Assembly (NCBI GenBank): GCA_002919265.1
Contig: PKEY01000074.1
Location: 2,943 to 66,942, forward strand
Length of the DNA: 64,000 nucleotides
Reading direction: 5' to 3'
DNA from: Hyphomicrobiaceae bacterium
GTDB lineage: Bacteria > Pseudomonadota > Alphaproteobacteria > Rhizobiales > Hyphomicrobiaceae
Positions within the stretch are counted from its first letter, which is position 1. The number at the start of each line of letters is the position of its first letter. The translations under genes were made by a program, and so were the position numbers. The notes under the pieces were generated by a model. The model saw only the letters and a list, made by a program, of their open reading frames with translations. It made no database searches and had not been told where the DNA came from. Positions 5,287 through 27,802 of the stretch are shown here, piece after piece.

Positions 5287-5939
5287 ACTTGATACTGCTT
5301 GGGCCGCCGGGTGCAGGCAAAGGTACGCAGGCGGCGGCGATTGCTGCGTCGCGCGGACTGGTTCAGCTCTCGACCGGGGACATGCTGCGGGCGGCTGTGA
5401 AGGCCGGAACCGAGGTCGGAAAGCAGGCCAAGGCGATTATGGAACGCGGCGATCTCGTGCCGGACGAGATCGTCATCCGGATCATCGATGAGCGCATTGG
5501 TCAGCCGGATTGCGAGAACGGCTTCATACTCGACGGGTTTCCGCGCACGCTGCCCCAGGCCGCCGCTCTGGACAAACTGCTGGCGGACAGGAACAAGCAG
5601 CTCGACCTCGTTATCGAATTCAAGGTGGACGATGCCGCTCTCGTGGAGCGCATCTCCGGACGTTTCGCCTGCGCCAAGTGTGGCGCCGGCTATCACGATA
5701 AGTTCAAGCAGCCGAAGACTCCCGGTGTCTGCGACGCCTGCGGCTCGACGGAATTTTCCCGTCGCGCCGACGACAACGCCGAGACCGTGAAGAACCGGCT
5801 GATGGCGTACTACAAGGAGACCGCGCCGCTGATCGGCTACTACTTCGCCAAAGGCAAGCTGAAGTCGATCGACGGAATGGCTCCCATCGACCAGGTGACG
5901 CACGCAATCGAGCGCCTTCTGGCCGAAGTGGCGGCTTGA
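5283..5939 (+). CDS. adk: Adenylate kinase (Cys4 zinc-lid type)
   Basis: P-loop LLGPPGAGKGTQA. Lid CAKCGAGYH...CDACGS. ATGA start/stop overlap with secY. Confidence 0.97.
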   Translation: MNLILLGPPGAGKGTQAAAIAASRGLVQLSTGDMLRAAVKAGTEVGKQAKAIMERGDLVPDEIVIRIIDERIGQPDCENGFILDGFPRTLPQAAALDKLLADRNKQLDLVIEFKVDDAALVERISGRFACAKCGAGYHDKFKQPKTPGVCDACGSTEFSRRADDNAETVKNRLMAYYKETAPLIGYYFAKGKLKSIDGMAPIDQVTHAIERLLAEVAA

Positions 5940-8711: not shown

Positions 8712-9734
8712 ATGAGTGGGCTGGTTCTCGTTACTGGCGCCACAGGCTTCATCGCCAAGCACTGCATCGCGGAACTCATCCGACAAGGCTATCGCGTTCG
8801 TGGCACGGCGCGCCAACCCGGCGCGCATGCCGATATTGCTCGTGCCCTTGAGAGGGCAGGGATTGATGCCTCGTGGCTTGAGGTTCAGCGGGCCGATCTC
8901 CTTCACGATGATGGATGGGAGCAGGCTTTGGACGGGTGCTCCCACGTCCTGCACGTTGCCGCTCCGTTTCCCATCAAACCGCCGCGTGATCACGAGCGGC
9001 TTTTGCGACCTGCCGTCGACGGAACCTTGCGCGTCCTGAAAGCCGCGACGCGCGTCGGCGTGCAGCGGGTCGTCCTGACGTCTTCCGTCGTCGCCTGCAT
9101 TTATCCATCGGGAACGGAGCAATCCCGCACCTACACCGAAGCAGACTGGACGGACATCAACCGTCCGGATATCAGCCCTTACGTCGTGGCCAAGACACGG
9201 GCCGAGCAGGCGGCCTGGGAGTTCGTCCGCACGACGCCAAACGCGCCTGAGCTAGCGGTCATCAATCCCGGCTTTGTTTTGGGCCCGGCGTTCGACACCG
9301 ATCTTTCGACCTCCCTTGAGGTCGTGAAGCTGATTGCCCAGGGGAAGTACCCTGCCGCGCCGCGTGCCGGTTGCATTGTCGTGGACGTGCGAGACGTTGC
9401 GGCGGCCCATGTCGCTGCCATGACCAATCCGAACGCTTCCGGAGAACGCTTCCTCGCGACCAGCGGCACAATTTCCTTGCTTGACCTGGCGCGGATGATC
9501 GCACATGCCGTCCCGCACGTCGCCTCCCGCATCCCCCGCCGGGAGGTGCCTGACTTTCTGATCCGCGCCCTGGCGTACTTCGACCGCAGCCTGTTGGCCG
9601 TTCTTCCAGACCTCTCCGTCCACCGCGTCTGCGACAGCTCCAAGGCGCAGACGCGGCTCGGCATCTCGTTCCGTTCTCCTCGCGAAGCCGCCACCGCTGC
9701 GGCGAAGAGTTTGCATGATTTGGGTGTGGTTTAG
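8712..9734 (+). CDS. NAD(P)-dependent epimerase/dehydratase-family SDR (aldehyde/dihydroflavonol-reductase-like)
   Basis: N-terminal Rossmann motif VTGATGFIAKH. Extended-SDR length of 340 aa, with Y-x3-K candidate YVVAK. Confidence 0.8.
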   Translation: MSGLVLVTGATGFIAKHCIAELIRQGYRVRGTARQPGAHADIARALERAGIDASWLEVQRADLLHDDGWEQALDGCSHVLHVAAPFPIKPPRDHERLLRPAVDGTLRVLKAATRVGVQRVVLTSSVVACIYPSGTEQSRTYTEADWTDINRPDISPYVVAKTRAEQAAWEFVRTTPNAPELAVINPGFVLGPAFDTDLSTSLEVVKLIAQGKYPAAPRAGCIVVDVRDVAAAHVAAMTNPNASGERFLATSGTISLLDLARMIAHAVPHVASRIPRREVPDFLIRALAYFDRSLLAVLPDLSVHRVCDSSKAQTRLGISFRSPREAATAAAKSLHDLGVV

Positions 9735-9817
9735 TTTCACGCCTCCCCAAGATCAGTCACAGAACTGACATCTTTTCGGTAACTTGTCGGCCAGGACGAT
9801 TCATCTGGACCAGGCCG

Positions 9818-11653
9818 ATGGGAACGGTCGCACAGGGCTGGGAAACCGATTCCCCCCATGCTGGGCGCATTCCGAGACAAGCCGGTGCGCGGTTCGGTCC
9901 ATTCTTCGTCAGATATGAAGCGTGGGTTGAGCGTGCTCTGGAGTGGGCCACGAAAAGCCCATTTCGCGCAACTTTCCTTCTGATCGTCCTTTGTCTCGCT
10001 TTGTTCAGCCCGGGAGTTTTCTCGCGGCCGCCGGTCGATCGCACGGAAGTGCGCTACGCGATAACAGCCCAGACCATGATCGAGACGGGCGACTGGTTTG
10101 TGGTTCGCGAAGGCACGCGACCCAAATTCGAGCGTCCGGTCGGCATCGTCTGGCTGCAGAGTTTGTCGGCGAAACTTTTCGGGCCTCCTGGTCTGGATGC
10201 CATTTGGGCCTACCGCATTCCGTCGCTCCTCGGAGCAATTTTGTCGGTGGTTTTCCTCTACCTTGGGAGTAGGGCTCTCGTAGGCGAAACCACGGCCTTT
10301 TTTGCATCCGTACTTCTGGCGCACTCCATATTCCTGGCAGTGGAGGCCCGGCTGGCGCTGCCGCAATCTGTGGCGCTGGCCGCGTCCGTCCTTGCACAGA
10401 CGAGCCTCGCACGCCTCTATGTGCTGCGAGAAGCACTCACGAACGCTCAGCGCCGCCGAACCGGGCTCTTGTTCTGGGGGGCAATTGGCGTTGGCGTTCT
10501 CGTCAACTCCTTGATCGTCCCTGTTGTAGCTGTCCTCACGCTTGCCGCGCTCTATGCCAAGGACCGAAATCTGTGCCTGCTGAAGGGGGCGAGCAATGTC
10601 CTTGGGCCGCTTCTGGCATTGGTGCTCGCAGCGCCGTGGGTCGCTTCAGTCGTGCTCACATCCGCTGAGGTTTCTTCGGATCGATATTCGACGCTGCGCT
10701 GGATCTCCCTGCTGATCGACTCGCAGGTGATGCATCACAAAGCCTTCTGGGGCAGCTTTTTGCTGATGGCGTGGCTCGGCATATTGCCCGCGATTTTGCT
10801 TACATTCCCCACTGCCCAGCTGATCTGGCGCGAAAGGCGCGTCCCGCTCGTCGCCTTTCTCATTGCCTGGGCCGTCCCGTATCTCGTGCTTTTCGAGCTC
10901 CTTTCGGACAAGCCGCCGCTCTACATGCTCCAGTATATCGCGCCGGCCATCGCGTTGGCGTTCGCGCTGCTTGTGACCAGGAACCCTGTCACCGGCGATC
11001 CGCCCAACATTCCGCTACCGGGGTGGACTCGCGTCGCTTGGATGTTGCTGGCGGCCTGCATGGCCCTCATTCCGATCGGCTTGCACCTCTGGGTCGGTCA
11101 GCCGGTTGGCTTCCTGATGGTGGCGGCGTCCGCGGCGATCCTCTTGCTCTTTGCAGCGACGATTTGGGCCTGGCCGCATTGCCGGCCGCTCACGTCAACT
11201 ACGTTCTCGCTGGCGGGATGCGCTGTCGCGTACTGGCTGGTGATGGCCATGCTGATGCCCGCCGAGTCGATGGTTTGGCCGAGCGTGCGGCTGGAAGAGG
11301 TAAGGGACGCCTTGCAGCCCTGCTTCCCGCAACCCGTCGCTATCGCAGGTTATTCCGAGCCGAGCGCCACGTTTCTGATGGGAGCCGACATCGTGACCGG
11401 CCGGCCTGCCGTTGTGGCGCAGCACCTCCGGGAAAATCCCCGGTCATTGGCGTTCATCACGCATGATGTCTTGCCGGATTTCGAAAAGGAATTCGAAGGG
11501 AGCAACGCCGCGCCAGCACGGGTTGCCTGCGTGCGCGGATGGAATACCTTCACGTCAAAAGGGGGCCAGTTCTCGGTATTTGCAATGGAGCCGGTCCCTG
11601 CCGAACCGACTTGTGTTGTCCCCGCTCGCTACCGGTGTGCGGCCGAAGACTAG
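9818..11653 (+). CDS. Glycosyltransferase family 39 (ArnT/PMT-like) polytopic membrane protein
   Basis: More than 10 hydrophobic segments. N-terminal loop DRTEVRYAITAQTMIETGDWFVVREGTRPKFERPVGIVWLQ resembles the ArnT/PMT_2 catalytic loop. The true start may be downstream of 9818. Confidence 0.7.
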   Translation: MGTVAQGWETDSPHAGRIPRQAGARFGPFFVRYEAWVERALEWATKSPFRATFLLIVLCLALFSPGVFSRPPVDRTEVRYAITAQTMIETGDWFVVREGTRPKFERPVGIVWLQSLSAKLFGPPGLDAIWAYRIPSLLGAILSVVFLYLGSRALVGETTAFFASVLLAHSIFLAVEARLALPQSVALAASVLAQTSLARLYVLREALTNAQRRRTGLLFWGAIGVGVLVNSLIVPVVAVLTLAALYAKDRNLCLLKGASNVLGPLLALVLAAPWVASVVLTSAEVSSDRYSTLRWISLLIDSQVMHHKAFWGSFLLMAWLGILPAILLTFPTAQLIWRERRVPLVAFLIAWAVPYLVLFELLSDKPPLYMLQYIAPAIALAFALLVTRNPVTGDPPNIPLPGWTRVAWMLLAACMALIPIGLHLWVGQPVGFLMVAASAAILLLFAATIWAWPHCRPLTSTTFSLAGCAVAYWLVMAMLMPAESMVWPSVRLEEVRDALQPCFPQPVAIAGYSEPSATFLMGADIVTGRPAVVAQHLRENPRSLAFITHDVLPDFEKEFEGSNAAPARVACVRGWNTFTSKGGQFSVFAMEPVPAEPTCVVPARYRCAAED

Positions 11654-11687
11654 TGTTTTGTCGGAAGGCGGGTGCCCGCAGTGAACG

Positions 11688-12353
11688 TCACTGCGGGGCG
11701 CCAAGCACGAGCGTCCAGAACGTCTTGAATTCCGTCTTCGGATCCTGGACCAGGGCAATGCCCATATGCCGGGCATCAGCCATGAGGAGGTTCTTGTTGT
11801 GGCTCGGGCTTGCCTTCCAGCCCTGCAAAACTTCCTCGAAGGTGGCCTGGCCCGTGCCCACGTTTTCGGCCGCGAGGCGCGGATTGTAGCCGGCGCGCTT
11901 CACGCGATCCAACGGATTGGAGCCGTCCGAACCATAGTGAGAGATACGATCAAACCGCGCGAGGTCGCGCGAGTGGGCTTTCGCGGCGGCTGTCAGCTCG
12001 GGGCTCAGCTGCAGCGGCTTGAGCCCGTGCTTTTTCCGGTACTCGTTGATCAGCTTGCGCGCATGCTCGACGTCGAGCGTCGTTTGCGAGTAATCGCGGC
12101 CGTCGAGAGCGCCCGGTTTTGGCTTCGCGTAGGAATTGCCGGGAGCGTTGTCCTGCAAAGCGGCGACGCGCTGGCCCTGTTTGTCCGATGTCCCTCGCGA
12201 TGATCCGCTCCCGCCGAAAATGCCGAGAGACGGCGTCTCCAATGAGGAGGCATTCGAGCCAGAGTCACCGAACCCAAACGAGAGAGGCACGGTGCCCAAG
12301 CTGCAGCCTGGCAGCAGCAGAGCAAAGACAATCGGAACAACCACGCGATACAT
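11688..12353 (-). CDS. CAP/SCP (YkwD-like) domain lipoprotein
   Basis: Lipobox LLPGC after the signal peptide. CAP-domain stretch INEYRKKHGLKPLQLSPELTAAAKAHSRDLA ... WKASPSHNKNLL. Confidence 0.8.
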   Translation of the reverse strand: MYRVVVPIVFALLLPGCSLGTVPLSFGFGDSGSNASSLETPSLGIFGGSGSSRGTSDKQGQRVAALQDNAPGNSYAKPKPGALDGRDYSQTTLDVEHARKLINEYRKKHGLKPLQLSPELTAAAKAHSRDLARFDRISHYGSDGSNPLDRVKRAGYNPRLAAENVGTGQATFEEVLQGWKASPSHNKNLLMADARHMGIALVQDPKTEFKTFWTLVLGAPQ

Positions 12354-12750
12354 TCGGATACTCCCGCTCCGAAGCGGACCGCTTCAGGATCTTCGAATCC
12401 GGTTAAGGCAACGTTAAGGCTAACGGCTTGTTAAGATTATCGTGATCGGGCGATTCGCTGGCGCACGCCCGGCCTGCCGCCAGCCAAGTGCAATTGGCAT
12501 CAGGAGATTGTCGGGAGTGGGGCAGCGACACGGCCGGTTGGTGGCGGAGCGCAACCGGAACACATTCCGGGCACCGCCTAATCCCCACAGCGGCCGTTTT
12601 CCACTTGGCACCAGCCTGCCGATCCTGAAAATCGAAAAAGTCCTTTGTGATTCGCGCGTCTGGCACTTGGCAGGCTCTGTTGCCGAGTGGAAAGGTGACA
12701 GTGCGACTTCGCCAGTTGAAGTCTTCAATCCGGCCGGGAGGTCGAGAAGG

Positions 12751-13914
12751 ATGAGCACAGCCGTCTTGGAAGCCCCGCGGGCCGACGCCGTCAATCCGGC
12801 ATTGGGGCTCCTGGTGTTGGCGCGTGCTGCGGCCGAGCACGGTGCAACGCAAAGCGAGATCGTCCGTGATCTGGCGCCGTATGTGGGGCACAAGCTGGCG
12901 CCGGCAGCCTGGCGGGATGCAGCTGCGAAGGCGGTTGCCTCTTTCGCCGCGCAAGGGCTGGCCAGCGTGGTGCGCAATCGCGTGGAGCTTACGGACGCAG
13001 GGCGCGACGTCGTGCAGAAGGAGCTTGGCGGCAGGCAGTTGCCTCGGGCCTGGGGGGAAATCCGCGACGTCCGGCTAATCGCTCGTGCCTTGGGCATGGA
13101 GGGCGAAGCGCTCGCGCGCCTCAAGCGTCTGGCGAAGCCGGATGGTTTGCGTGCCGCCATCCTGCAGCGAGCCTTTGGGCTGAAGATCCGGGGGGCAGCG
13201 AGCGCCGCAAGACTGCGGCAGGCGCTGGCCGTCGTTGCTCTCGAGAGGGCCTTCGGGAATACGCTCAAAGGCTCTGTGGGAACGAGAACCGGACTTTCTG
13301 CGAAGGCGGGACGGCTGCTGGCGGGTCAGCTTTCTCGCAAGCCGCGCGATTTCGGTACGGATAGCCGGCTGGTGGCAGCTCTTGCGGCAGAGCAGGTCGG
13401 CGCCTTCCAGACAGATGCCGATGCGCTGCGCACGGCCATTCTTCGCAACTTCGTCGCGCAATCGTTCGGAACTGTCTCTGAGCCAGTTTCTCGATCGGAA
13501 CTTGAAGCGCGGAGAGAAGCTCAGCGATCGGATGATCGTCAACCCGTCGAGGAGCGGGGCACGGTGGTTGCGATGCCGGGCGCTCAACGTCCGCGTCCCC
13601 TCGCAGCGAACCGTCCGAGCCTTGAAGGTTTTGCGGAAACCGTGCGAAAAGCAGCCAGCTCCTGCGCTGAAGGGTGGCCCGGCAACCGTAAGGCGTTCAT
13701 TTCGCATGTTTGGGACATCATTCGGGAGCAGCATCCCGAGTGGGGAATCACCGATATTGAGTTCAAGGCCATGTTGGCCGAAGCGCATCGCACGGGCCAC
13801 GTCGTCCTCGCCGGTGCGGATCTCAAGGACAAGAAGAACCTGAAGGCGCTGCAAGACTCTGCGGTGGCCTACAAGAATGCTGTTCTGCACTTCGTTCGTG
13901 TCGACAACGAGTGA
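12751..13914 (+). CDS. Hypothetical Ala/Arg/Leu-rich soluble protein (387 aa), the 5' partner of the twin-ATPase gene
   Basis: ATG at 12751 is preceded by GGGAGG-N-GAGAAGG. It is co-directional with the next gene across a 133-nt spacer. I recognise no catalytic motif. The track start at 12442 adds 103 unlikely residues. Confidence 0.6.
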   Translation: MSTAVLEAPRADAVNPALGLLVLARAAAEHGATQSEIVRDLAPYVGHKLAPAAWRDAAAKAVASFAAQGLASVVRNRVELTDAGRDVVQKELGGRQLPRAWGEIRDVRLIARALGMEGEALARLKRLAKPDGLRAAILQRAFGLKIRGAASAARLRQALAVVALERAFGNTLKGSVGTRTGLSAKAGRLLAGQLSRKPRDFGTDSRLVAALAAEQVGAFQTDADALRTAILRNFVAQSFGTVSEPVSRSELEARREAQRSDDRQPVEERGTVVAMPGAQRPRPLAANRPSLEGFAETVRKAASSCAEGWPGNRKAFISHVWDIIREQHPEWGITDIEFKAMLAEAHRTGHVVLAGADLKDKKNLKALQDSAVAYKNAVLHFVRVDNE

Positions 13915-14047
13915 CGTGCGGCTTCGGATCGTACGTTTTGCTAACGGCCGCAAGAGCCGTCGCGGGAGTGGCGTTGGCCGGGAATCGGCCGAGAGCCGCA
14001 CTGCGGAGTAGATACGTAGATCTGTCGCGTTTTGGGGGTTTGGGATA

Positions 14048-17000
14048 ATGCAACCGACCGCGCAAACCGCGCTTTCCGTCGACAGTCTTTCCGCGGCGTT
14101 CGAGCATTCGATCACGTGGGAGGACGATATTTGGCGTGCCGATCCTGTCGACGTGGAGCAGGTGCATGCGAAGGCGCGTCGCAAATTCTACGATCTCCTC
14201 GATGCCGTCACGTCGGGGCGCGGCTCGGGCACGCAGGCACGGATTTTGCTGTTTCACGGCCAGTCCGGTGCCGGCAAGACCCATCTCATCCGTGCGCTGA
14301 GGACAGGCTCGCATCGTCAGGGCAAGGCCTACTTCGGCTACGCCCAGATGACGCCGGACGTCTCAAACTACGCCGACTACTATCTACGGCGGATTATTGC
14401 GTCGCTCGAAAAACCTTACGATCCGGACAATGGCGGCGAGAGCGCCCTGACGCGGCTGACGAACCGGCTCGTCTCGATGGCCGACGTGCTGCCGGAAGAG
14501 GACCTGAAGGAGCTGCGCGAGGCCAATCTGGATGAAAGGGCGCTTGCCCAGCTCATCCTGAGGCTGGCTGATGAGATCATTGCGAGCCCGGCCTTTGCGG
14601 ACCAGGACCTCGACGTCAACGTGGTGCGGGCGCTGCTCTATCTGCAGCGTTGCGATCCGCGTATTGACCAGCGCGTTCGGCAATACCTGCAGGGACGTCA
14701 GCTCAACGAACTCTCTCACGCGGCAGTTGCAGCGCTCGACCCGAACAGCGGAGACGGTCGTGCCTTCGAGATCATCGAGGCGATTGGCAAGCTGATCTGG
14801 ACGGTGGAGCGCGCCGCGCTCGTTTTCTGCATCGACCAGGTTGAAGACCTGCGCTTCTTCGAGGACGCGGAAGACCGCTTCCAGAAGGCCGTCCGTGATC
14901 TCATCCAAATCGCCAATCGCGTACCAACGGCGATCATCATCATCTCGTGTCTGGAAGATTTTTACGGGCAGGTTCGCGGCGTTCTTGCCCAATCCTATAT
15001 CGACCGCATCGAGAAAGCTGGCCCTGTGGCCTTGCTCGAAACGCGCACGCCGGAAGAGGCGCGGCTCATCATCGCCAAGCGCCTCGAGCATGAGGCCTCG
15101 CTCAGGAACGGCGGCCCCACCTTCCCTGATCCTACAGCGTTCTTCGGCCCGCAGTTCTTCGAGGAGTTTGGCGGGCTTTCGACAAGGCGATTGTTGGAGC
15201 ACGCTCAGAATAGGCTGCGCGCCCAGCAGACCAATACGATGGAGGACGAGCCGGAGGTTGAAAGCCCACCGGAGAAAGCCGGCTTCATCTCAACGCTTGC
15301 GGCAGCGCTCGGCTTTGCACCCAACAACGACGAGCCGGCGGCGTCCGAAATTCCTCCGGGCATCGACTATCGCGATCTCTGGCAACGGTTTTCGCAGGCG
15401 TCCGAGGCGGAAATGCCCTCGAATGACTCCGAGCTCATGGACGTGCTCATAGCTGCCTTGGGGCTCGCGCGCGAGGAATGGGGTGAGCAGATCAAATTCC
15501 GGGTCAAGCGCCTCGAAATCGCGGACGATGTGCCTGCCTTCGACCTTTTCGTCACGCACGTTCGCGGCGGGGGTGAGCTGACGTTCGAGTCGCGGGTCTT
15601 CCTCTGCAACAGGCCGACCCAGGGCGGCGGGCTCAAGCGTCAGCTCGAGAAGGTGCTGATGAACATGGGCGGGCGCGCATCGTTCATGCTGCGCGCCAGC
15701 GATTTCCCGCCGAACCGGAAGAACCAGACGGCGCAGGCGTTTCGCAAATTCCGGGACAACGGGGGGCGCTCCCTGCTGGTGCCGATCCCGGATTGGGAGC
15801 GCATGATGATGGTGCGCGAGTTCCACGCCCATCACCGCTACGATCCAGGATTTGATCGTTGGTTCGAGCAGGCAAAGCTGCTCTCGGGCATGATCCCCAT
15901 TGTGCAACTCTTGCGGCTCGACCTTTTGGGGCCGCCTTCGGGCGTCAACGTCATTCCCGTTGGCAGCGGAATGATTCGGCCACGGACGCAACCGACAGAA
16001 ATGTTTCGTGGCCAAACGGACGCGGCTGCATCCTCACACTCATCCGTGCCGGAAGTTCAGCCCTCGGAAGAGCGCGAAACAGCTGGCTCTGCGGCGCAGG
16101 CTGATCCTGTTCCAGTCGATCCGCCAATCGTCGAAAAGCCGTCGCGCTGGGCGTGGGCGGACTGGATCGGTTGGGGCTCGTCCTCTCGCACGGAGCCACT
16201 GCCCGCCAACGACGATCCGCTGCCGATGTCCGTCCTTCTGGACGAGGGCGGCGATGATGAGGACAGCATCCTGGCCGGGCGGGAAAACGGCACGAACCGT
16301 CTGGTCAGACTTAATCGCGATGTGCTGAAGCGCCACGCGGCGGTGCTCGGCGGCTCAGGATCGGGTAAGACGACGCTGGCCCTCAGCATTATCGAGCAGC
16401 TGCTGTTGCGCGGCATCCCGGCGGTGCTGATCGACCGCAAGGGCGATCTCTGCAGCTACGCCAACCCGGAGGTCTGGCGCGCCCACGAACACGAGTTCGA
16501 CGAGCGCCGTGCCGCCGAACGCCGGCGGCTTGCCGAAGCAATCGACGTCGCGGTGTACACGCCGGGACGCGCGTCTGGCCGTCCGATCTCGATCACGCTT
16601 CTGCCGAACGGCATCAGCGAGCTGCCGGAGCATGAGCAGCAACTGCTCGCCAATCTCTCGGCGGCTGCGCTGGGCGACATGCTGCACCTCAAGAATTCGG
16701 CGACACACCAGAAGCAGTCCGGCACGCTATCAGTGGCGCTCAAGATCCTTGGCAGCCGTTCGCGCACGGAAGTCACGCTCAACGACCTGATCTATCTGCT
16801 GGAGAACGAGGATCCGGAGCTGACCGACCTGACGCAGCGGATGGACCCCTCCGGCAAGATCCGGCGGGATCTGGTCGCACAGCTCGACAGCTTGCGGCAC
16901 CGCAATTCAGCCTTGTTTGACGCTGGCGGCGAAAGCCTCCGCATGGAGGCGTTGCTCGGCATCGGGCCCTATGCCCAGCCCGGTCGCACGCGCCTCTCGA

Positions 17001-17551
17001 TCATCTACACGGGCTTCTTGGGCGACAACGAGAACATTCTCTTCTGGGTCGCGCAATTCCTGTCGGAGGCTTTGCGGTTCTGCCAGCGAAACCCGAATGA
17101 CGAGCTTCAAGCCGTCGTCATGTTCGACGAGGCGGACCTTTACATCCCGGCCAATTCCAAGCCGGCAACCGCCGAGCCGCTGCAGAGTTTGCTGAAGCGC
17201 GCCCGTTCGGCCGGCCTGGGCCTGATGCTCGCGACGCAATCGCCGGGTGACCTCGATTACAAGAGCCGTGATCAGATCACGTCGTGGTTCATTGGCCGCG
17301 TGCGCGAGGATACGGCGCTGCGCAAACTCAAGGCTGCCTTCCAGAGCGAGAGTGGTCTGGATCCTGCCGCCGTGCTGCCCGGCCAGACGGTCGGTGAGTT
17401 CCATCTGGTGCAGGAGGGGTTGGTCCGGTCCATCAAGGCGCAGCGCTCGCTCATCAGCGCCGAGCAGGTGCCGTTCGATCGGATCGAGCAGTTGGCCCGC
17501 GAGACGAAGGGGCAGGAGACGAAGCAGCTGCCGCTCTTTGGCTTGCGGTAG
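14048..17551 (+). CDS. 1167-aa twin P-loop NTPase: an N-terminal AAA/ORC-STAND-like module fused to a C-terminal HerA/FtsK-class ATPase module
   Basis: Module 1: Walker A GQSGAGKT (14258..14281) with LVFCIDQVED as Walker B candidate. Module 2: Walker A GGSGSGKT (16349..16372) behind a HerA-type lead-in VRLNRDVLKRHAAVLGG, Walker B VVMFDEAD (17114..17137), and LMLATQSPGDLD. A Pro/Ser/Glu/Asp-rich linker spans about aa 645-740. Confidence 0.8.
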   Translation: MQPTAQTALSVDSLSAAFEHSITWEDDIWRADPVDVEQVHAKARRKFYDLLDAVTSGRGSGTQARILLFHGQSGAGKTHLIRALRTGSHRQGKAYFGYAQMTPDVSNYADYYLRRIIASLEKPYDPDNGGESALTRLTNRLVSMADVLPEEDLKELREANLDERALAQLILRLADEIIASPAFADQDLDVNVVRALLYLQRCDPRIDQRVRQYLQGRQLNELSHAAVAALDPNSGDGRAFEIIEAIGKLIWTVERAALVFCIDQVEDLRFFEDAEDRFQKAVRDLIQIANRVPTAIIIISCLEDFYGQVRGVLAQSYIDRIEKAGPVALLETRTPEEARLIIAKRLEHEASLRNGGPTFPDPTAFFGPQFFEEFGGLSTRRLLEHAQNRLRAQQTNTMEDEPEVESPPEKAGFISTLAAALGFAPNNDEPAASEIPPGIDYRDLWQRFSQASEAEMPSNDSELMDVLIAALGLAREEWGEQIKFRVKRLEIADDVPAFDLFVTHVRGGGELTFESRVFLCNRPTQGGGLKRQLEKVLMNMGGRASFMLRASDFPPNRKNQTAQAFRKFRDNGGRSLLVPIPDWERMMMVREFHAHHRYDPGFDRWFEQAKLLSGMIPIVQLLRLDLLGPPSGVNVIPVGSGMIRPRTQPTEMFRGQTDAAASSHSSVPEVQPSEERETAGSAAQADPVPVDPPIVEKPSRWAWADWIGWGSSSRTEPLPANDDPLPMSVLLDEGGDDEDSILAGRENGTNRLVRLNRDVLKRHAAVLGGSGSGKTTLALSIIEQLLLRGIPAVLIDRKGDLCSYANPEVWRAHEHEFDERRAAERRRLAEAIDVAVYTPGRASGRPISITLLPNGISELPEHEQQLLANLSAAALGDMLHLKNSATHQKQSGTLSVALKILGSRSRTEVTLNDLIYLLENEDPELTDLTQRMDPSGKIRRDLVAQLDSLRHRNSALFDAGGESLRMEALLGIGPYAQPGRTRLSIIYTGFLGDNENILFWVAQFLSEALRFCQRNPNDELQAVVMFDEADLYIPANSKPATAEPLQSLLKRARSAGLGLMLATQSPGDLDYKSRDQITSWFIGRVREDTALRKLKAAFQSESGLDPAAVLPGQTVGEFHLVQEGLVRSIKAQRSLISAEQVPFDRIEQLARETKGQETKQLPLFGLR

Positions 17552-17593
17552 CTGCGCTCGTCCTGAGCCCCTAAAATCCGGGTGCTGATGTTT

Positions 17594-17619
17594 GCGTTGT
17601 GGTGGGCGCGCCACAGCGC
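17594..17619 (+). terminator. Stem-loop 43 nt after the twin-ATPase stop (no U-tract)
   Basis: GCGTTGTGG / CCACAGCGC form 9 bp including one G-U pair, with an 8-nt loop. It is followed by AAATTCG, so it is not a canonical intrinsic terminator. Confidence 0.3.
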
Positions 17620-17951
17620 AAATTCGTCGCACCACGAGACCTTGCTTGCGCGACGCGGTCCCTAATTCGGCGTGTGTCAGGACATGCCGAATGCAAACGA
17701 TTTTTTAAGTGTCCGGAATTTATTATGAATCCACGCCTTCTCCCGTGGAGATTGCGAGTGGACGCGCGTTTGCAGGGAATTGCGTTTCCTCCCTGATGGC
17801 GAATGCAATTTTTAGCTGCAGCGCCTCTTTTTTAGATGTATTCTGAAACCTGCCGTTCCGGAAAGGGGGCCGGTGCGGCCAGTGGCCAGTGGTACACAGC
17901 TCGGTGCCAGGGGGAGTCGGGTATCGAGCGGCGTTTGTGCGGGGTAGTGTC

Positions 17952-18044
17952 ATGACGGCTAAGCCGTTGATTGTGATGTTGCTTGCCACGTTGCTCGGTC
18001 CGGCGATCGGCGTGGGGCTGTTCTTCTTGATGCATACTCTCTAA
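17952..18044 (+). CDS. Possible 30-codon hydrophobic small ORF (MTAKPLIVMLLATLLGPAIGVGLFFLMHTL)
   Basis: Read by eye; it falls below the ORF-track size cutoff. It has a single TM-like segment and a weak RBS (GGGGTAG). It lies in a 630-nt gap upstream of moeA. Confidence 0.2.
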   Translation: MTAKPLIVMLLATLLGPAIGVGLFFLMHTL

Positions 18045-18179
18045 TCGTTTTAGCGTTTGGAACCTGTAGCGGGCACTTTCGGCCGGTGGCGAGATGTTGC
18101 CGCCGATTGTTGGCAGCGTTATTCCATCCAAGGTGAAGCCGCCTAACTCGAATTCAGCCGACCGGCCGCGGCGGATGGA

Positions 18180-19466
18180 ATGACCGGAAAAATCCTCAAC
18201 GACTGCTTCCAGCCTTTTGAGCAGCGTATGCGCCATGCGGAGGCTATTGCGCTGCTTCGCTCCCGTATCGCGCCGATCGCTTCCGTCGAGCAGGTGCCGC
18301 TTGAGCAGGCGCTCGGGCGCATTATTGCGGAGCCTATTGTATCGCCGCGCCCCGTACCTGCGCACACGAATGCTGCCGTCGACGGGTATGCTTTCGCCCA
18401 CGAAAGCTATGATCGTGCCAGTGGCACCACCTTTGTGATCGCCGCACGGGCTGCGGCCGGCCACCCGGTCGGCGAGCCGCCTGCGGGAACGGCGGTGCGC
18501 ATCTTCACCGGTGCCGTGATGCCGGCTGGCTTCGATACCGTCGCGATGCAGGAGGACTGCGAGGTCCTGCCAGCGGAGGCGGGTGCAAAAGTCAGAGTGC
18601 GTATCCCCGGTGGGCTAAAGCAGGGTGCCAACGTTCGGCTTGCTGGCGAGGACGTTGCGGTTGGCGAGACGCTGTTCACGCCCGGGCACATTCTCCGGCC
18701 TCAGGATCTTGCCGCGCTCACCTCTATCGGCCTCGACAAGGTGAGCTGCTTCGCGCCGCTCCGGCTCGCCATCGTTTCAACGGGGGACGAGATCGTCCGT
18801 CCGGGCGCGGGTGAGTTGGGGCCAGGGCAGGTTTTCGATGCCAACGCGCCAATGCTGGTCGGGCTCAGCAAGCTCGCTGGCTGTATCACGGAAGATCTTG
18901 GGATTTGGCCAGACGATGCCGCGGAAGTGCGACGTCGGCTGGCGGAGGCAGCGCAATCCTTCGACGTCGTCCTGACCTCCGGCGGCGCGAGCCGCGGCGA
19001 GGAAGATCACATGGGGGCGGCGCTGGCAGCGCTGGGCACGCGCCATTTCTGGTCGCTCGCCATCAAGCCCGGCCGTCCCATGATGTTCGGGCAGATCGGG
19101 AAAAGCATCGTCGTCGGCCTGCCCGGCAACCCCGTGGCCGTGTTCGTCTGCTTCCTGATGTACGTTTGGCCTATGCTGCGTCGCCTATCGGGTGCGGTCT
19201 GGCCGGAGCCGCGGCGGCTTCCCATGAAGGCTGCCTTTGACTTCCCGAACCGCAAGACCGGACGGCGCGAATTTTGGCGCGGCTTCTTTGTCGAAACTCC
19301 GGAGGGCCTGGCCGTCGACAAATTCAAGCGAGACGGCTCCGGGTTAATCACCGGGCTCAGGCAAGCCGACGGTATTATCGATATCCCGGAGGACGTTGCC
19401 GAGGTGAAACGCGGCGATACGGTGGCCTTCATCCCCTTCACCGAGTTCGGTATTCTCAACCGGTGA
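18180..19466 (+). CDS. moeA: Molybdopterin molybdotransferase MoeA
   Basis: 428 aa. Typical MoeA stretches: VPAHTNAAVDGYAF, RIFTGAVMPAGFDTV, VSTGDEIV, DVVLTSGGASRGEEDH, LAIKPGRPMMFG, GLPGNPVA. Confidence 0.9.
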   Translation: MTGKILNDCFQPFEQRMRHAEAIALLRSRIAPIASVEQVPLEQALGRIIAEPIVSPRPVPAHTNAAVDGYAFAHESYDRASGTTFVIAARAAAGHPVGEPPAGTAVRIFTGAVMPAGFDTVAMQEDCEVLPAEAGAKVRVRIPGGLKQGANVRLAGEDVAVGETLFTPGHILRPQDLAALTSIGLDKVSCFAPLRLAIVSTGDEIVRPGAGELGPGQVFDANAPMLVGLSKLAGCITEDLGIWPDDAAEVRRRLAEAAQSFDVVLTSGGASRGEEDHMGAALAALGTRHFWSLAIKPGRPMMFGQIGKSIVVGLPGNPVAVFVCFLMYVWPMLRRLSGAVWPEPRRLPMKAAFDFPNRKTGRREFWRGFFVETPEGLAVDKFKRDGSGLITGLRQADGIIDIPEDVAEVKRGDTVAFIPFTEFGILNR

Positions 19467-19641
19467 TTGATGACGCCGCAGTGACGTTACTGCGGCAAAC
19501 GTGTGCACCGAGCTAATTCTGATCCACAGGTGAACCACACAATCATCAATCATTAACCGCGATCCTTCTTTAATCGAGGGACAGTCAGCACGTAATCGGC
19601 AGTCCGCTGGCCCTCCGGTGCACGCCAAAAGAGGATCGTCC

Positions 19642-20259
19642 ATGTCTCGCCCATCCGCTCCTCAATTCACATTTGTCAGACGTGAAGAGAAGGAATTCAG
19701 GATCAGAGAACTCGTGGTCCGCCACCTGCAGCGACAGGCTGCGGATAGCTTCCAGGGTGTCGGCGAAAAGACATGCTTGATGATCGCTCGCTCCGCCGAC
19801 AGTCCGATGGCGAAGACGGTGCTATCGCTCGGCGCCTCCGGCGCCCTGAGGGGTTATTCCGTGCGCGCGATTTTCGGCTTCCTTGGTACGGCCGAAACCG
19901 TGAAGATCGCGGAGGCTTGCCGGGCTTCCGCCTGGTCGCTGCAAGTGCGCTGGGCACGTGATTTGCGGCTCCTCGAAGCCCACGAGCAGCTTGTTTTGGG
20001 CACGGAGACGAGCTGGTACGGCGACAGCATGCGCCGGGATCCGTCGATTCGTGATGCCTGCGAGCTGTACGCGCCCGAATGCCCGGTGACGGCCCGCCGT
20101 TCAATCCAGTTCTTCGAGAATTTATGGCGCGCTTCCGAGCCGGTTTTCGAGCGCACGCTCGTGCCGACGAACGAGCTGCCGGACCCGGCGCTCATCCCTT
20201 CAATTACCGAGCTTTCTTCGCGGTTTTCCGCGAAGTGCAGGGTCCGGACATCCGCATGA
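19642..20259 (+). CDS. Hypothetical protein (205 aa from the ATG at 19642)
   Basis: ATG lies 7 nt after AAGAGGA. No motif recognised. Codon composition looks native. Confidence 0.5.
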   Translation: MSRPSAPQFTFVRREEKEFRIRELVVRHLQRQAADSFQGVGEKTCLMIARSADSPMAKTVLSLGASGALRGYSVRAIFGFLGTAETVKIAEACRASAWSLQVRWARDLRLLEAHEQLVLGTETSWYGDSMRRDPSIRDACELYAPECPVTARRSIQFFENLWRASEPVFERTLVPTNELPDPALIPSITELSSRFSAKCRVRTSA

Positions 20260-20417
20260 GGCGTGTTCGCCGGGCAGCGGAAAGCTGACAGGCGCTGCCT
20301 GGCGAATTCCCGGTAAAGACATCAATTCGCCGGCAAGTAGCCTCTATTCCGCAGCACCATTCTGAGCGAGTGTAGAGTGTCGCCTGCCCCCATGGTGTTG
20401 ATGGGGCACTGGCTCGC

Positions 20418-23400
20418 TTGAGGTGTGCCATGTTCGGATGCCTGCGCCTTGCCTTCGCAGCACTCGTCCTCCTCGCTCTCCTGCCTTCCAGCTCATTCGC
20501 TCAAACTTTTTTTGCGCACGCGGGCATTGCTCGCGAAGCCGAGCGCCTGGAGGCGAGCCTTGCCGCCTTGTCACCGAGGCGTCCTGCAGCTGATCTTATG
20601 AATGCCGGGCGCGCGGCTTTGACCACGCAGAACGACCCGAGGACGGCAACGCGGGCCTTCAAGGCAGCAGCGGCAAGAGACGGGCAGAATGCGGAAGCTT
20701 GGCTCCTGCTTGCGCGGTCGCTGCTCGATACGACGCCTGATCCCAACCGTCCGGCTGAGCGGTATGAGTTGCCGGCGCAGGCCAGCGCAGCGGCCTATCT
20801 GGCCTATCAGCGCTCCACCGACAACACCTTGAAAGCGCGTGCGCTTTCCATTCTCGGAGAGGCCCTGGAACGCCGATCTTTCTGGCGTCCGGCAATCGAG
20901 GCCCTGAAAACCAGCCTCGCCCTCGTCGAAGACACATCCGTACGCGAACGCTACGAGAGGTTACGCAGCGAGTACGGTTTCCGCATCCTCGATTACACGG
21001 TCGAACAGGATTCCTCGGTTCCTCGGGCTTGCGTGCAGTTCTCTGAACCGTTGGCGCGCGGCCAGGACCTGACGCAGTTCGTTGCCGTTGACGGCAAGGA
21101 TGCACAAGCGTTGGTCATCGAAAACCAGCAGCTCTGCATTGAAGGTCTCTCCCACGGCAAGAATTACAACCTGCTCATCCGTGCCGGTTTGCCATCCACC
21201 GTCGGAGAGACATTGGAGAAGCCGGCTGAACTTGCCGTCTACGTGCGCGACCGCACACCATCCGTGCGGTTCGTCGGCCGCAGTTACGTTCTGCCGAGCC
21301 GCGGGCAGTCCGGAATTCCTGTCGTTTCGGTCAACACCGAGAAGATCGCGATTGAAATTTTCCGCATTGGCGATCGCAGTTTGGCCCAAACCATAAACAG
21401 CGGCGATCTCCAACGTCAGCTCTGGCCCTATGAAGTCGAGCAAATGCGCCAGACGACGGCGGCGCGCGTCTATGCTGGCGAGCTGGCGGCGAAAATGCGC
21501 CTCAATGAAGAGGTCACCACCGCCATTCCCATCGGCGAGGCGGTGCCGGAGCTGAAGCCCGGTGTGTACGCGATGATCGCGTCGCCCGCGGAAAAGCTGA
21601 ACGACTACAGCGCCTACGCGACGCAATGGTTCATCGTCTCGGACATCGGGCTTGCCACGTTCACGGGTGAGGATGGCGTTCACGTCTTCGCCCGTTCGCT
21701 CGCGACGACGCAGCCGCTTGCGGACGTCACCGTCAAGCTCGTCGCGCGAAACAACGAGGTTCTCGGCGAGGCGCGGACCGATGCAAGCGGCTACGCTCAC
21801 TTCGAGGCCGGTCTGGCGCGTGGCGAAGGCGGCATGGCGCCGGCGCTGGTTTCGGCCGAAAGGGAGACCGATTTCGCCTTCCTGGATCTGACGGCCGCTT
21901 CGTTCGATCTCTCCGATCGCGGTGTGAAGGGTCGGGAATCACCAGGCCCGATCGATGGCTTCCTTTTCACGGAGCGGGGTGTCTACAAGCCCGGTGAGAC
22001 AGTCCACCTGACGGCACTCATCCGCGATCGAGACGCCAAGGCGATGTCGGTTCCGGCCACCTTGATCGTCAGCCGGCCGGATGGCGTCGAGCATACCCGC
22101 ATTGCTCTGACCAATGGTGAGCTGGGCGGCCATACCACGTCACTGCCGCTCGCCACATCGGCCATGACTGGGACGTGGCGCGCCAGGCTTCATACCGACC
22201 CCAAGGCCGATCCGCTCGCGACCGTGGCTTTCCTTGTCGAGGACTTCGTCCCCGAGCGAATGGATCTCGAAATCGAGCCGGGTGCAAAAGCTCTGGCCCC
22301 AGAGGAGACGGCTACCGTGAAGGTCGCCGGTCGGTACCTCTATGGTGCGCCGGCCGCGAACCTAGCCATCGAAGGCGACATCGTCGTCAAGCCGGCAAAG
22401 GATGGCTTGCCCGGTTGGGCGGGCTATTACTTCGGGCTTGCCGACGAGTCCGTGGAGCCCGTCCGTTCCCCGATTGAAAACCTTCCCACCACCGATGCCG
22501 AAGGCCGGGCCGAGCTTAGCGTCGTGCTGCCGCCTATTCCGCGCACGGGCCGTCCACTGGAGGCCGACCTTCTTCTGCGCCTGCGCGAACCCGGCGGCCG
22601 GACGATTGAACGGATCGCAACGCTGCCCGTGGACCTACGCGGCCCGCGGATTGGCCTCAAGCCGATGTTCCGGGACCTGCAGCTCAGCGAGGACAGCACA
22701 GCCGATTTCGAACTCGTCTATCTCGATGCGAATGGCCAGCGGGCATCATTGCTAGGCGCAAAGTGGGAGCTCGTGCGCCTGGAGCAGCGCTGGCAGTGGT
22801 ACAGCCGCGACGGCTACTGGACTTACGAGCCCTTTACGCTCACGCGGAAGGTGGCGAGCGGGACGGTCGACATCGGAGCGGATGCGCCGGCCCGCGTCGC
22901 CGTGAATGTCGAGTGGGGCCGCTATCGGCTGGAAGTAACGAGCCCGGAGCAAGGTGGTCCGGTTTCCAGTGTCGTCTTCTCAGCGGGATGGTATGCCGAT
23001 CGGGACGCCGACAGTCCCGAGATGCTGGAGGTCGCGCTCGACAAGCCGACCTACAACGCGGGCGAGGTGGCCAAGCTCAAGATTGTTGATCGGCTAGGCG
23101 GCCGGGCGCTCGTTGCGGTCCTGCGCGAAGGTTTGCTCACCAGCCAGGAGGTCGAGTTGCCGGCCGGCGGTGGGGAAGTCGCGATCCCTGTCAAGGAAAC
23201 ATGGGGGCCCGGCGCCTATGTGGCTGCCATGCTGTATCGTCCGATGGACGAGCGTGCGAAACGAATGCCGAGCCGGGCGATTGGGCTCAAATGGCTGCCC
23301 ATCGACCAGAGCGCGCGCACGCTGAAGGTCGCAGTGGAAGCTCCGGAGCAGGTTCGCTCGGGTACGCTGTTGACGGTGCCAGTCCAGCTCGATGGCCTCG

Positions 23401-25682: not shown

Positions 25683-27802
25683 GCCTCGGGAGCGTAATTC
25701 TCGGGGGGACAAGAAGGCCGGGGCGCTGGCTCATGGCGGCGCTCTGTTTTCCGATTGCGTTGGGGTTTGCCGTCTACGGAGCAGTTCGACTCACGGAAAG
25801 TGCCATCGGGCCGCCACCACTTGAAGTGGCCGAGAAGCTTTCCGTCACCGTTCTCGACCGGAATGGCGATCTTCTGCGGGCGTTCACCACGCCCGAGGGC
25901 CGATGGCGGTTGCCGGTGGACGTGAAGGACGTCGACCCGCGCTATATCTCGATGCTGCTCGCCTACGAGGATCGCCGCTACTACGAGCATGGCGGTATCG
26001 ATCTGTTCGCGGTGCTTCGGGCCAGTTATCAGTTCATCCGCCATGGACGGATCGTCTCGGGCGCGTCGACGATCACCATGCAGGTGGCGCGCTTGCTCGA
26101 TGGCAAGCATGAGCGGACGCTCGCTGGAAAGTGGCGCCAGGCCGTCCGCGCGCTCCAGCTCGAATCGCAGCTCACGAAGGATGAGATCCTGAATTTGTAT
26201 CTCAGGCTAGCGCCCTTCGGAGGGAATCTCGAAGGCGTCCGCGCGGCATCGCTGGCCTATTTTGGCAAGGAGCCGCGGCGGCTTTCGATAGGTGAGGCGG
26301 CTCTGCTGGTTGCGCTGCCGCAGTCACCAGAAACGCGGCGACCGGACCGTCATCCGGATACAGCGCGCTGGGCGCGGGATCGCGTGCTCGACCGGATGGT
26401 GGAGGCCGGCGTCATCACGGAAGCAGAGGCCGGGCGCGCCCGGGCTGAACCGGTGCCGACGGCGCGGCGCGAGTTTCCCCGATTTGCTCCGCACATCTCC
26501 GAAACGGAGGCCCAGCTCTTCCCGTGGCGGTCCATCCATCGGCTGACGATCCTGCGCGATTTGCAGGCACAGCTTGAAACACTAGCGTTTGAGCACGCGC
26601 GGCGACTCGGCCGCAGGCTGTCGGCGGCAATCATCGTCCTGCACAACAGCTCGGGCGAGGTGCTGGCCCACGTGGGTTCGTCGGACTATCTCGACGCCTC
26701 CCGCCAGGGCGCCATCGATATGACTGGCGCGATCCGCTCGCCCGGCTCCACGCTCAAGCCCATCATTTACGGGCTTGCTTTCGAGGCGGGACTCGCCCAT
26801 CCGGAAACCCTCATCGACGACGGCCCGACGCGCTTTGGGCTCTACGCGCCCAAGAATTTCGACGAGGACTATCGCGGTTCGGTGACGATCCGCGAGGCGC
26901 TGCAGCACTCCCTCAACGTTCCGGCGGTAAAGGCGCTTAATGCGGTCGGACCGGCGCGACTGGTCTCGCGGCTTCAACGGGCGGATTTCAGGCCGGAGCT
27001 TCCGGCGCATGAAACACCGGGCCTAGCCATCGCCCTTGGTGGGATCGGGTTGAGCCTGCGGGATTTGGCGAGCCTTTACTCTGCGCTCGCGCGCGGGGGC
27101 GACGTCATTCCCCTGAGGTATCGTTTGGAAAACCATCTGAGAAACACGGCGCAAGGCGCGCAGCCGAAACGACTGCTCTCACCCGTTGCAGCCTGGTATG
27201 TGAGCGATATTCTGAAGGATGCTCCGGCTCCGGAAGGGGCAATCGGTGGCAGGTTCGCCTACAAGACCGGCACGTCCTACGGCTATCGCGACGCGTGGGC
27301 GATTGGCTACGACGGGACGCATACGGTGGCGGTCTGGGTTGGCCGTCCCGACGGCAGCTCGACGCTGGGGCTCACGGGGCGTACAGCTGCAGCGCCGCTG
27401 CTGTTCGATGCCTTCCGCCGACTGGGGCCAGAACGCGCGGCGCTTCCCAAGCCACCGCCCGGCGTGCTGAATGTCCATGGCTCCGCCCTTCCGCCTCCCC
27501 TCAAACGCTTTGCCGAGCCTGGGGAGCAGCAGGCCGAAGCCGGGCCGTACAGAGAACCGCCTGTGCTCATCGCATTTCCACCAGACCGATCTGATCTGGA
27601 TCTTTCTGAAGCCGATGATCTCATTGTGTTAAAAGCGGAGGGCGGCGCGCTGCCTCTGACGTGGATGGTCAACGGCGCGCCGATCCCCTCCGATCCGCAT
27701 CGGCGCGAGGTCGTCTGGCAGCCCGACGGGCGCGGCTTCGTAAAGCTCACCGTGACTGACGCCAAAGGGCGGGTCGACCGCGTGAGCGTCCGCCTCCGCT
27801 GA
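25679..27802 (+). CDS. pbpC: Penicillin-binding protein 1C (bifunctional glycosyltransferase/transpeptidase)
   Basis: GT51 motifs AYEDRRYYEHGGID and GASTITMQVARL. Transpeptidase motifs SPGSTLKP (SxxK), SLN and KTGTS. GTGA start/stop overlap with the A2M gene. Confidence 0.9.
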   Translation: MSLGSVILGGTRRPGRWLMAALCFPIALGFAVYGAVRLTESAIGPPPLEVAEKLSVTVLDRNGDLLRAFTTPEGRWRLPVDVKDVDPRYISMLLAYEDRRYYEHGGIDLFAVLRASYQFIRHGRIVSGASTITMQVARLLDGKHERTLAGKWRQAVRALQLESQLTKDEILNLYLRLAPFGGNLEGVRAASLAYFGKEPRRLSIGEAALLVALPQSPETRRPDRHPDTARWARDRVLDRMVEAGVITEAEAGRARAEPVPTARREFPRFAPHISETEAQLFPWRSIHRLTILRDLQAQLETLAFEHARRLGRRLSAAIIVLHNSSGEVLAHVGSSDYLDASRQGAIDMTGAIRSPGSTLKPIIYGLAFEAGLAHPETLIDDGPTRFGLYAPKNFDEDYRGSVTIREALQHSLNVPAVKALNAVGPARLVSRLQRADFRPELPAHETPGLAIALGGIGLSLRDLASLYSALARGGDVIPLRYRLENHLRNTAQGAQPKRLLSPVAAWYVSDILKDAPAPEGAIGGRFAYKTGTSYGYRDAWAIGYDGTHTVAVWVGRPDGSSTLGLTGRTAAAPLLFDAFRRLGPERAALPKPPPGVLNVHGSALPPPLKRFAEPGEQQAEAGPYREPPVLIAFPPDRSDLDLSEADDLIVLKAEGGALPLTWMVNGAPIPSDPHRREVVWQPDGRGFVKLTVTDAKGRVDRVSVRLR

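Follow-up and report, generated by a model that had tools for sequence, protein, structure and literature searches.

Why would two P-loop ATPases of different classes be joined in one polypeptide, and in what kind of system might such a protein work? This question is raised by an open reading frame (ORF) at 14048..17551 (+) in a 64-kilobase (kb) stretch of DNA from a Hyphomicrobiaceae bacterium (GCA_002919265.1, contig PKEY01000074.1, positions 2,943–66,942, forward strand; the whole stretch is referred to as the window), which encodes a protein of 1167 amino acids (aa) with no internal stop. The fusion protein is the large subunit specified by a chromosomal cassette of two genes, the other of which codes for a winged-helix partner and is located directly upstream (12751..13914). 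This cassette forms the Hyphomicrobiaceae branch of a system of three genes that is widespread and encodes a DUF559-nuclease protein, the winged-helix partner, and the fusion protein. Judged by domain content, the inventory matches closely that of the computationally predicted Orc/Cdc6-HerA/FtsK capture systems.

Two Different P-Loop ATPases in a Single Chain

The original prediction divided the protein into four parts, with two ATPases of different classes separated by a middle region and an acidic, proline-rich linker. This layout is real, because Pfam placement, intact motifs, and the composition and identity of the segments all agree; Walker A and B are intact in both halves, and only the boundaries had to be refined. 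The N-terminal part (residues 1–392; 14048..15223, +) is an AAA+ ATPase of the AAA_16/AAA_22 type, for which Pfam gives matches to AAA_22 (E=9e-12) and AAA_16 (6e-11) over residues 46–290, both above the gathering score, and an additional match to nSTAND1 (5e-8). Its Walker A motif reads GQSGAGKT (residues 71–78; 14258–14281) and its Walker B motif LVFCIDQVED (residues 258–267; 14819–14848). Among defence profiles this half is closest to BrxD, with which it aligns over some 260 residues (PADLOC 6e-7, residues 47–313; NCBIfam 1e-6, below the cut-off), while sequence-profile searches of the PDB with it gave nothing significant.

The C-terminal part (residues 740–1167 plus stop; 16265..17551, +) is a HerA/FtsK ATPase of the DUF853/YjgR/Mad8-like kind, with Pfam matches above the gathering score to DUF87 (2e-11) and HerA_C (1e-9) over residues 750–1077, a PADLOC match to mad8 (2e-21, residues 755–1124), and sequence matches in the PDB to HerA (8wiv and 4d2i) and YjgR (11kk). 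Walker A (GGSGSGKT, residues 768–775; 16349–16372), Walker B (AVVMFDEAD, residues 1022–1030; 17111–17137), and an LATQSPGD motif containing ATQSP (residues 1061–1068; 17228–17251) are all present on the + strand, and the roughly 100 residues between motifs (858–958) probably form a helical insert, judging from the spacing. In an alignment of 20 relatives the nucleotide-site motifs of both halves are invariant. Sequence comparison accordingly supports the claim of two different P-loop classes in one chain, the N half being of the ORC/Cdc6-STAND (ORC, origin recognition complex), BrxD-like AAA+ type and the C half of the HerA/FtsK type. Among close relatives, identity amounts to 76 % in the N-terminal ATPase, 43 % in an acidic spacer, 70 % in the middle domain, 22 % in the linker, and 88 % in the HerA half.

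Weak matches to the TrwB_AAD_bind, FtsK_SpoIIIE, EccCb, TraD, CedB, and BrxD profiles could also be taken to indicate a coupling ATPase of secretion or conjugation (EccC, VirD4/TraD, or TraB-like) or a BREX component (BrxD/BrxC). However, all of these matches lie far under the curated cut-offs (BrxD 27.8 vs 350 bits in NCBIfam NF033438, EccCb 18.8 vs 346.55, TraD 21.9 vs 366) and cover mostly the P-loop; the protein lacks a transmembrane segment (the highest Kyte-Doolittle value for a window of 19 residues, 1.81, falls inside the RecA core), and secretion, conjugation, integrase, PglZ, and PglX genes were not found in the window or in related loci. This explanation is effectively refuted and retains very little probability. 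With scores of this size, the protein also falls outside the characterised BrxC/PglY-like and EccC-like families, membership of which had been left open.

The Fusion as the Normal State of Its Family

A covalent union of this kind might arise as an assembly or annotation artefact joining two genes. The 120 best matches in a collection of 5.8 billion proteins are 1105–1185 aa long, align over 99–100 % of the query at 70–100 % identity, and come, where named, from Hyphomicrobiaceae. In addition, a scan in which each GTDB species was represented by a single genome found 599 stretches matching the pattern and verified relatives at 399 of them. The 80 best loci, selected by similarity to the fusion protein, underlie all 80-locus figures given here. 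These 80 loci match essentially the whole fusion protein at 68–83 % identity, include complete chromosomes, and are labelled nearly throughout as Hyphomicrobiaceae, Hyphomicrobium, or Filomicrobium; at least 80 species-level genomes of the Hyphomicrobiaceae encode the protein at full length, with 67–83 % identity. A few labels deviate: one locus bears the name Leptospira interrogans (L001, JBNOAI010000009.1) and three others that of Devosia sp. or Devosia equisanguinis (L008, L013, and L014). All four carry the cassette at 71–79 % identity, with Hyphomicrobiaceae-type synteny in L001, L008, and L013 (L014 is too short to show it), and the organism labels are probably due to contamination or mis-binning.

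An exhaustive search of representatives clustered at 50 % identity returned 3214 matches, of which 598 reach E<1e-30. Outside the close family, representatives mostly measure 1030–1300 aa and share 33–43 % identity, with both halves matched; members occur in Planctomycetota (Singulisphaera, Tautonia, Isosphaeraceae), Myxococcota (Archangium, Myxococcus, Vitiosangium), and Nitrosomonas eutropha, a patchy distribution across phyla. Some relatives are named BrxD/DUF2791 by their sources. The search for homologues with separate halves that the original prediction had proposed turned up, among the 150 best representatives, shorter matches that are contig-edge or N-terminally truncated fragments or frameshifted calls, as each of them starts inside a domain or carries frameshifts, and no genuine split (two-gene) version. 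The same uninterrupted architecture in the 120 best matches, the best 80 loci, and distant phyla, together with the lack of "half" proteins other than such fragments and miscalls, refutes an artefact, which has next to no probability left. The protein is the product of a single gene, as had been proposed, whereas the notion that the fusion is unusual has to be abandoned: since it is the only state seen and no split version was found, fusion is the normal state of this family, and coupling of ORC and HerA/FtsK domains is described in PMC10853773.

A Probable Nuclease Fold between the ATPases

The middle region (residues 390–640) had been described as devoid of recognisable motifs. At the level of sequence families this holds, with no Pfam match even at E≤10, but not at the level of structure. 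An AlphaFold2 (AF2) model of residues 390–651, built with 60 diverse relatives, has a mean predicted local distance difference test score (pLDDT) of 84 (core >90) and the topology a-a-b-b-b-a-b-a-b-a. In a Foldseek search of the PDB, the first five ranks are taken by PD-(D/E)xK restriction enzymes (each with probability ≥0.97), namely EcoT38I (E=1.5e-4), AspBHI (7.7e-4), and three MspJI chains (1.6e-3 to 3.5e-3); the nuclease-containing Cap4 and Avs3 follow lower in the list, and a viral structure library yielded uncharacterised proteins only. As the TM-scores are low (0.26–0.32), the assignment of residues 437–628 (15356..15931, +) to a restriction-endonuclease (REase; PD-(D/E)xK-like) fold is only moderately supported. 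Behind this fold, the model shows only three short helices (602–609, 616–622, 624–627) and then disorder, with no beta wing.

When conservation was compared by clade, the canonical D...(D/E)xK residues were found not to be conserved across the family. The invariant or near-invariant set consists of E477, C520, N521, G526-G527, L529, Q532, R549, G572-G573-R574, W583, F592, and W605. Judged from these residues, the nuclease fold may be inactive or repurposed, possibly as a binding or sensor module.

A different picture would emerge if the domain were itself catalytic in Hyphomicrobiaceae. Members of this group carry a five-residue insertion, I-A-D-D-(L/V), at the turn before strand 2 (residues 491–495; 15518–15532) and, on strand 3, the motif [E/D]514-x-R516 (15584–15598), both confined to Hyphomicrobiaceae, which together with E477 might recreate an E...D...(D/E)xK-like site and so replace a lost DUF559 nuclease. 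Both features are 98–100 % conserved in 61 Hyphomicrobiaceae sequences (E477 and R516 100 %, D493 as D/E 98 %, D494 as D/E 100 %, position 514 as E/D 99 %), whereas 94–98 % of 120 distant relatives have neither the insertion nor these residues, and relatives from the insertion-less group carry a separate nuclease in 7 of the 8 loci examined. Moreover, the model places the acidic pair at the turn before strand 2 and the E-x-R halfway along strand 3, which are the canonical positions. However, an arginine stands in place of the catalytic lysine, which is not known as an active configuration; the family-wide invariant residues (C520, N521, GGG, Q532, R549, GGR) resemble a binding site rather than a metal-nuclease site, and the charged residues could be structural salt bridges. 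A catalytic domain of this kind appears decidedly unlikely to us.

Spacer and Linker

The nuclease-fold domain is framed by two variable segments. On its N-terminal side lies an acidic, low-confidence spacer (residues 393–436; 15224..15355, +; pLDDT 48–63), delimited by its composition and low identity, which contains one short conserved hydrophobic helix, FISTLAAALGFA (residues 413–424; 15284–15319). On its C-terminal side, the acidic and proline-rich linker of the original prediction is clearly recovered as a disordered, hypervariable Pro/Ser/Asp/Ala segment (residues 629–739; 15932..16264, +) with 65 % P/S/A/E/D/T/G and a net charge of -12. Its length varies considerably, the distance from the CN motif of the nuclease-fold domain to the HerA Walker A motif ranging from 158 to 317 aa across 284 homologues. 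Two conserved motifs are found near its end, a Trp-rich WAWADWIGWG (residues 701–710; 16148–16177; pattern W-x-D-W-x-G-W-G) and an acidic/hydrophobic PANDDxLPxSVxLDE (residues 719–733; 16202–16246) just before the HerA core. All three short motifs are missing from the distant relatives inspected and are candidate sites at which the partner or adjacent subunits could dock.

The Winged-Helix Partner and the Hyphomicrobiaceae Locus

The partner gene (12751..13914, +; 387 aa) lies directly upstream of the ATPase gene. The listed ORF (12442..13914, from a GTG at 12442) over-extends it by 103 codons (12442–12750), and the true start is the ATG at 12751, which is preceded by a GGGAGG/GAGAAGG Shine-Dalgarno-like sequence and fits the homologue length of 366–390 aa; a similar over-call is seen in a database cluster (P0389, 465 aa). 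The AF2 model of the partner (pLDDT 87.6) shows a confident N-terminal winged helix (residues 16–80), a helical part (82–263), a disordered stretch (264–283), and an alpha/beta winged-helix-like domain at the C-terminus (284–384). Sequence searches of Pfam, PADLOC, NCBIfam, and the PDB returned nothing for this protein, and Foldseek gave no significant match in the PDB. A kinship with kleisins was considered, as MukF and four JetA structures head the Foldseek list, but their E-values (0.04–0.95) and root-mean-square deviations (>29 Å) are poor, and the idea was rejected after hhalign of the partner profile against Escherichia coli MukF gave a probability of 0.3 %.

The winged-helix partner is obligatory. 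It is found directly upstream of the ATPase gene, at 37–63 % identity, in 78 of the 80 loci, and the remaining two (L004 and L057) hold just 54 and 245 nucleotides (nt) 5′ of the ATPase gene. Between the partner and ATPase genes, which are 133 nt apart, no terminator-like site was found, and a search for RNA families in 9000–21000 found none. In paired comparisons within genomes, which stay valid despite the selection of loci for their similarity to the fusion, median identity is 70 % for the fusion protein and 47 % for the partner, the former being the more conserved in 78 of 78 cases. A DUF559 nuclease gene was sought by tblastn with three relatives' proteins and found neither in the 64-kb window nor in any of the 80 Hyphomicrobiaceae loci.

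The surroundings are constant as well: a gene for a CAP-domain lipoprotein is divergent from the cassette in 61 of 80 loci, MoeA is encoded downstream in 27, and the position is syntenic in 61–78. The fusion protein is also more conserved than the lipoprotein (in 60 of 61 genomes). Strong purifying selection acts on the cassette, which lies among housekeeping genes and is passed on vertically.

With regard to regulation, no SOS box (GTTC-N7-GTTC) was found near the operon, and cell-cycle control of the ATPase operon by CtrA was likewise rejected. The only perfect CtrA-type box (TTAA-N7-TTAA) of the window (expected 0.03) occupies 12403–12417, in the intergenic region between the genes at 11688–12353 (-) and 12751–13914 (+). 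Of 61 related loci in which the lipoprotein gene is retained, 57 have exactly one box of this type, usually about 50–60 nt upstream of that gene, with invariant half-sites and variable spacers; loci without an adjacent lipoprotein gene lack the box, which therefore belongs to the lipoprotein gene and travels with it. The lipoprotein itself is weakly similar to the NCBIfam "divisome-associated lipoprotein DalA". Further away, the window holds a gene for an alpha-2-macroglobulin (1754 aa) followed by an overlapping gene for a PBP1C-type penicillin-binding protein (20418–27802), a usual pairing that is unrelated to the cassette.

A Three-Gene Form in Distant Relatives

Gene context outside the Hyphomicrobiaceae was analysed at eight loci, including Archangium, Singulisphaera, Nitrosomonas eutropha C91, and metagenome-assembled genomes. 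An equivalent partner is encoded directly upstream of the fusion gene in all eight (Archangium partner vs window partner: 32 % identity, E=3e-34). In seven of them, a third gene stands directly upstream, encoding a protein of 373–438 aa with a C-terminal DUF559/Vsr-type REase domain, the DUF559 match being above the Pfam cut-off. This three-gene form is present in Archangium (A. violaceum, CP069396.1), Singulisphaera, N. eutropha C91 (CP000450.1, region 1102327–1119512), and four metagenome-assembled genomes, with genes that overlap or lie no more than about 80 nt apart; the third gene is located at 5632–6939 in L081 (Archangium), 4531–5847 in L082, 4622–5890 in L084 (a metagenome-assembled genome), 3684–4886 in L085, 3645–4940 in L086, 3884–5005 in L087, and 4701–6011 in L089. 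Ahead of the nuclease domain the product has an N-terminal region of about 340 aa, which in Archangium includes a degenerate P-loop-like GPPGLASS.

Several of the distant loci adjoin insertion sequence (IS) elements, toxin-antitoxin genes, or a Septu-like AAA_21+HNH pair. An AAA_15/AAA_21 ATPase gene is situated no more than a few kb from the three genes in L081 (1184–3195), L084 (10328–11509), and L087 (11182–12396), and is paired with an HNH nuclease, Septu-like, in L081. The proximity of this ATPase gene may point to a defence island or to an association that recurs.

Relation to BrxD, HerA, and FtsK Systems

Although the N half aligns with BrxD, which a later paper of the same school as PMC10853773 (see below) classes as an ORC/Cdc6 AAA+ ATPase, BrxD itself, a component of type 2 and type 6 BREX, is a stand-alone ATPase of about 430 aa that is paired with the BrxHI helicase, and the window lacks PglZ, PglX, and BrxHI. 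With the HerA family (archaeal HerA-NurA, the Sir2-HerA and DUF4297-HerA defence systems, E. coli YjgR/DUF853, Mad8 of MADS, and the DndH C-terminus) the protein shares the RecA core, Walker A/B, and ATQxP. Unlike these, it has no HAS-barrel match in Pfam, its ATPase core is preceded by a disordered linker, and the HerA domain follows AAA+ and nuclease-fold modules and a long tether in the same chain; the partner is a winged-helix protein (plus DUF559 in the relatives) rather than NurA, Sir2, or DUF4297. Scores against the specialised NCBIfam models are low (HerA_antiphage 28.9 and HerA_Thermprot 16.1, each against a cut-off of 800). The match to mad8 notwithstanding, no other PADLOC model matches any neighbour, which sets the locus apart from MADS, and no Dnd genes are nearby; literature searches on MADS/Mad8 and on DUF559 with HerA found nothing useful. 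FtsK/SpoIIIE and actinomycete TraB belong to the same ATPase superfamily and likewise combine a ring-shaped DNA pump with winged-helix DNA recognition. However, the fusion matches FtsK_SpoIIIE only marginally (E=0.004) and has neither a membrane anchor nor a gamma domain, and recognition would here lie in a separate protein.

Capture System or Housekeeping Machine?

The closest counterpart is found in the work of Kaur and co-workers (NAR 2024, PMC10853773), who described gene neighbourhoods in which HerA/FtsK domains are coupled with one particular version of the Orc/CDC6 AAA+ ATPases. As core domains, these systems have Orc/CDC6 with an inactive REase inserted behind its AAA+ core, an active REase, HerA/FtsK, and a winged helix, distributed over single or multiple polypeptides; one HerA/FtsK version carries a four-helix insert, and sometimes an extra fast-evolving multi-winged-helix protein (DndG/SspB/FokI-like) is added. 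The ORC-like part was proposed to localise the apparatus on DNA and HerA/FtsK to intercept the invading element, a prediction echoed in PMC12839542. The present system agrees with this scheme in having an ORC/Cdc6-type AAA+ domain with intact motifs, a REase fold without canonical residues directly after the AAA+ core, a HerA/FtsK domain in the same polypeptide, without FtsK-alpha and likely with a helical insert, and, by its model, a separate winged-helix protein; distant relatives of the fusion also carry a gene of the active REase superfamily. The relatives' nuclease is of the DUF559/Vsr type, not confirmed as one of the two families of PMC10853773, and the window partner evolves faster than the ATPase and has no match to DndG, SspB, or FokI by Foldseek. 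The Hyphomicrobiaceae form, by contrast, lacks an active REase gene, both in the window and in all 80 loci. The faster evolution of the partner, the IS, toxin-antitoxin, and Septu-like neighbours of relatives, and the patchy occurrence across phyla give the system a conflict-system flavour. What is already known is the ORC-HerA/FtsK class, as a prediction; new is the Hyphomicrobiaceae variant with its lack of a nuclease gene, vertical inheritance, strong conservation, and lineage-specific charged insertion.

A number of observations weigh against the capture reading. The class is known from prediction, a defence or capture role being a contextual inference in the literature and here, and ring formation as well as DNA translocation are presumed from family membership. 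One supplementary file of PMC10853773 names none of the present taxa, and inclusion of this exact family in that dataset is not confirmed. The REase assignment draws on modest Foldseek scores, and the C-terminal winged helix expected past an inactive REase is not evident in the model. Instead of a mobile or defence island, the window offers a purely housekeeping context without mobile or defence genes (MoeA, alpha-2-macroglobulin with PBP1C, AspRS, a GyrB/ParE-type subunit, PutA, and ClpA), and no full-length copy was found in the 72,556 plasmid and 50,697 phage records searched. The fusion protein is more conserved than MoeA in 27 of 27 genomes compared. Finally, lineage-level synteny is also seen in distant, planctomycete-like and myxobacterial relatives: L083, L085, and L086 share adh_short and cytochrome c2 genes, and L081 and L087 a glutathione synthetase neighbour.

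Fixed position, strong conservation in at least 80 species, recurrent synteny, and absence from the plasmid and phage records searched would all suit a housekeeping machine for DNA maintenance or repair, in which the ORC-like module and the partner would recognise a DNA structure that HerA processes, by analogy to end resection by HerA-NurA. Such a machine might conceivably serve a core function in Hyphomicrobiaceae that is linked to DNA handling in hyphal budding. The DUF559 domain of the relatives, too, has a Vsr-type fold, Vsr being a repair enzyme. However, no SOS-type box was found near the operon, the CtrA-type box upstream goes with the lipoprotein gene, and both the patchy phyla and the company of IS, toxin-antitoxin, and Septu-like genes in several distant loci are at odds with a housekeeping function; a link to budding in particular is countered by the presence of the system in Myxococcota and Nitrosomonas, which are non-budding. 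All things considered, we regard this explanation as somewhat unlikely. The balance tips slightly towards a capture system with the following division of labour.

A Working Model for the Cassette

In the capture system envisaged, an ATP-dependent switch for DNA recognition or loading would be formed by the partner together with the ORC/BrxD-like AAA+ module, including the latter's non-canonical nuclease fold, and the C-terminal HerA/FtsK module would assemble into a ring that pumps double-stranded DNA. The 110-residue flexible tether might allow the switch modules to work around the ring, such that both activities could act on the same molecule; the "sensor-gated translocase" of the original prediction would be a reasonable, if hypothetical, reading of such a protein. 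In the three-gene form, captured DNA would presumably be handed to the DUF559 nuclease, which would degrade it. Given that the Hyphomicrobiaceae cassette has no nuclease gene, its output must differ: DNA may be translocated or captured without cutting, or cut by another nuclease, possibly the system's own modified nuclease-fold domain.

These possibilities can be combined in a domestication scenario, in which a conflict-type capture system would have become a core chromosomal machine with vertical inheritance in Hyphomicrobiaceae and shed its stand-alone nuclease, to be used either for non-destructive housekeeping DNA pumping or capture, for example in hypha-forming budding cells, or for cutting by a re-armed nuclease fold. 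We consider this scenario unlikely.

Implications

The family offers a system in which the cooperation of a switch ATPase and a ring translocase within one chain can be addressed. Its compact three-gene version exists in culturable organisms (Nitrosomonas eutropha C91, Archangium, Singulisphaera), where it lends itself to defence assays, while across an entire bacterial family a nuclease-less variant is conserved more strongly than a housekeeping enzyme. A comparison of the two forms may reveal what the ATPase pair does alone and whether parts of a defence system were co-opted for a function in the cell.

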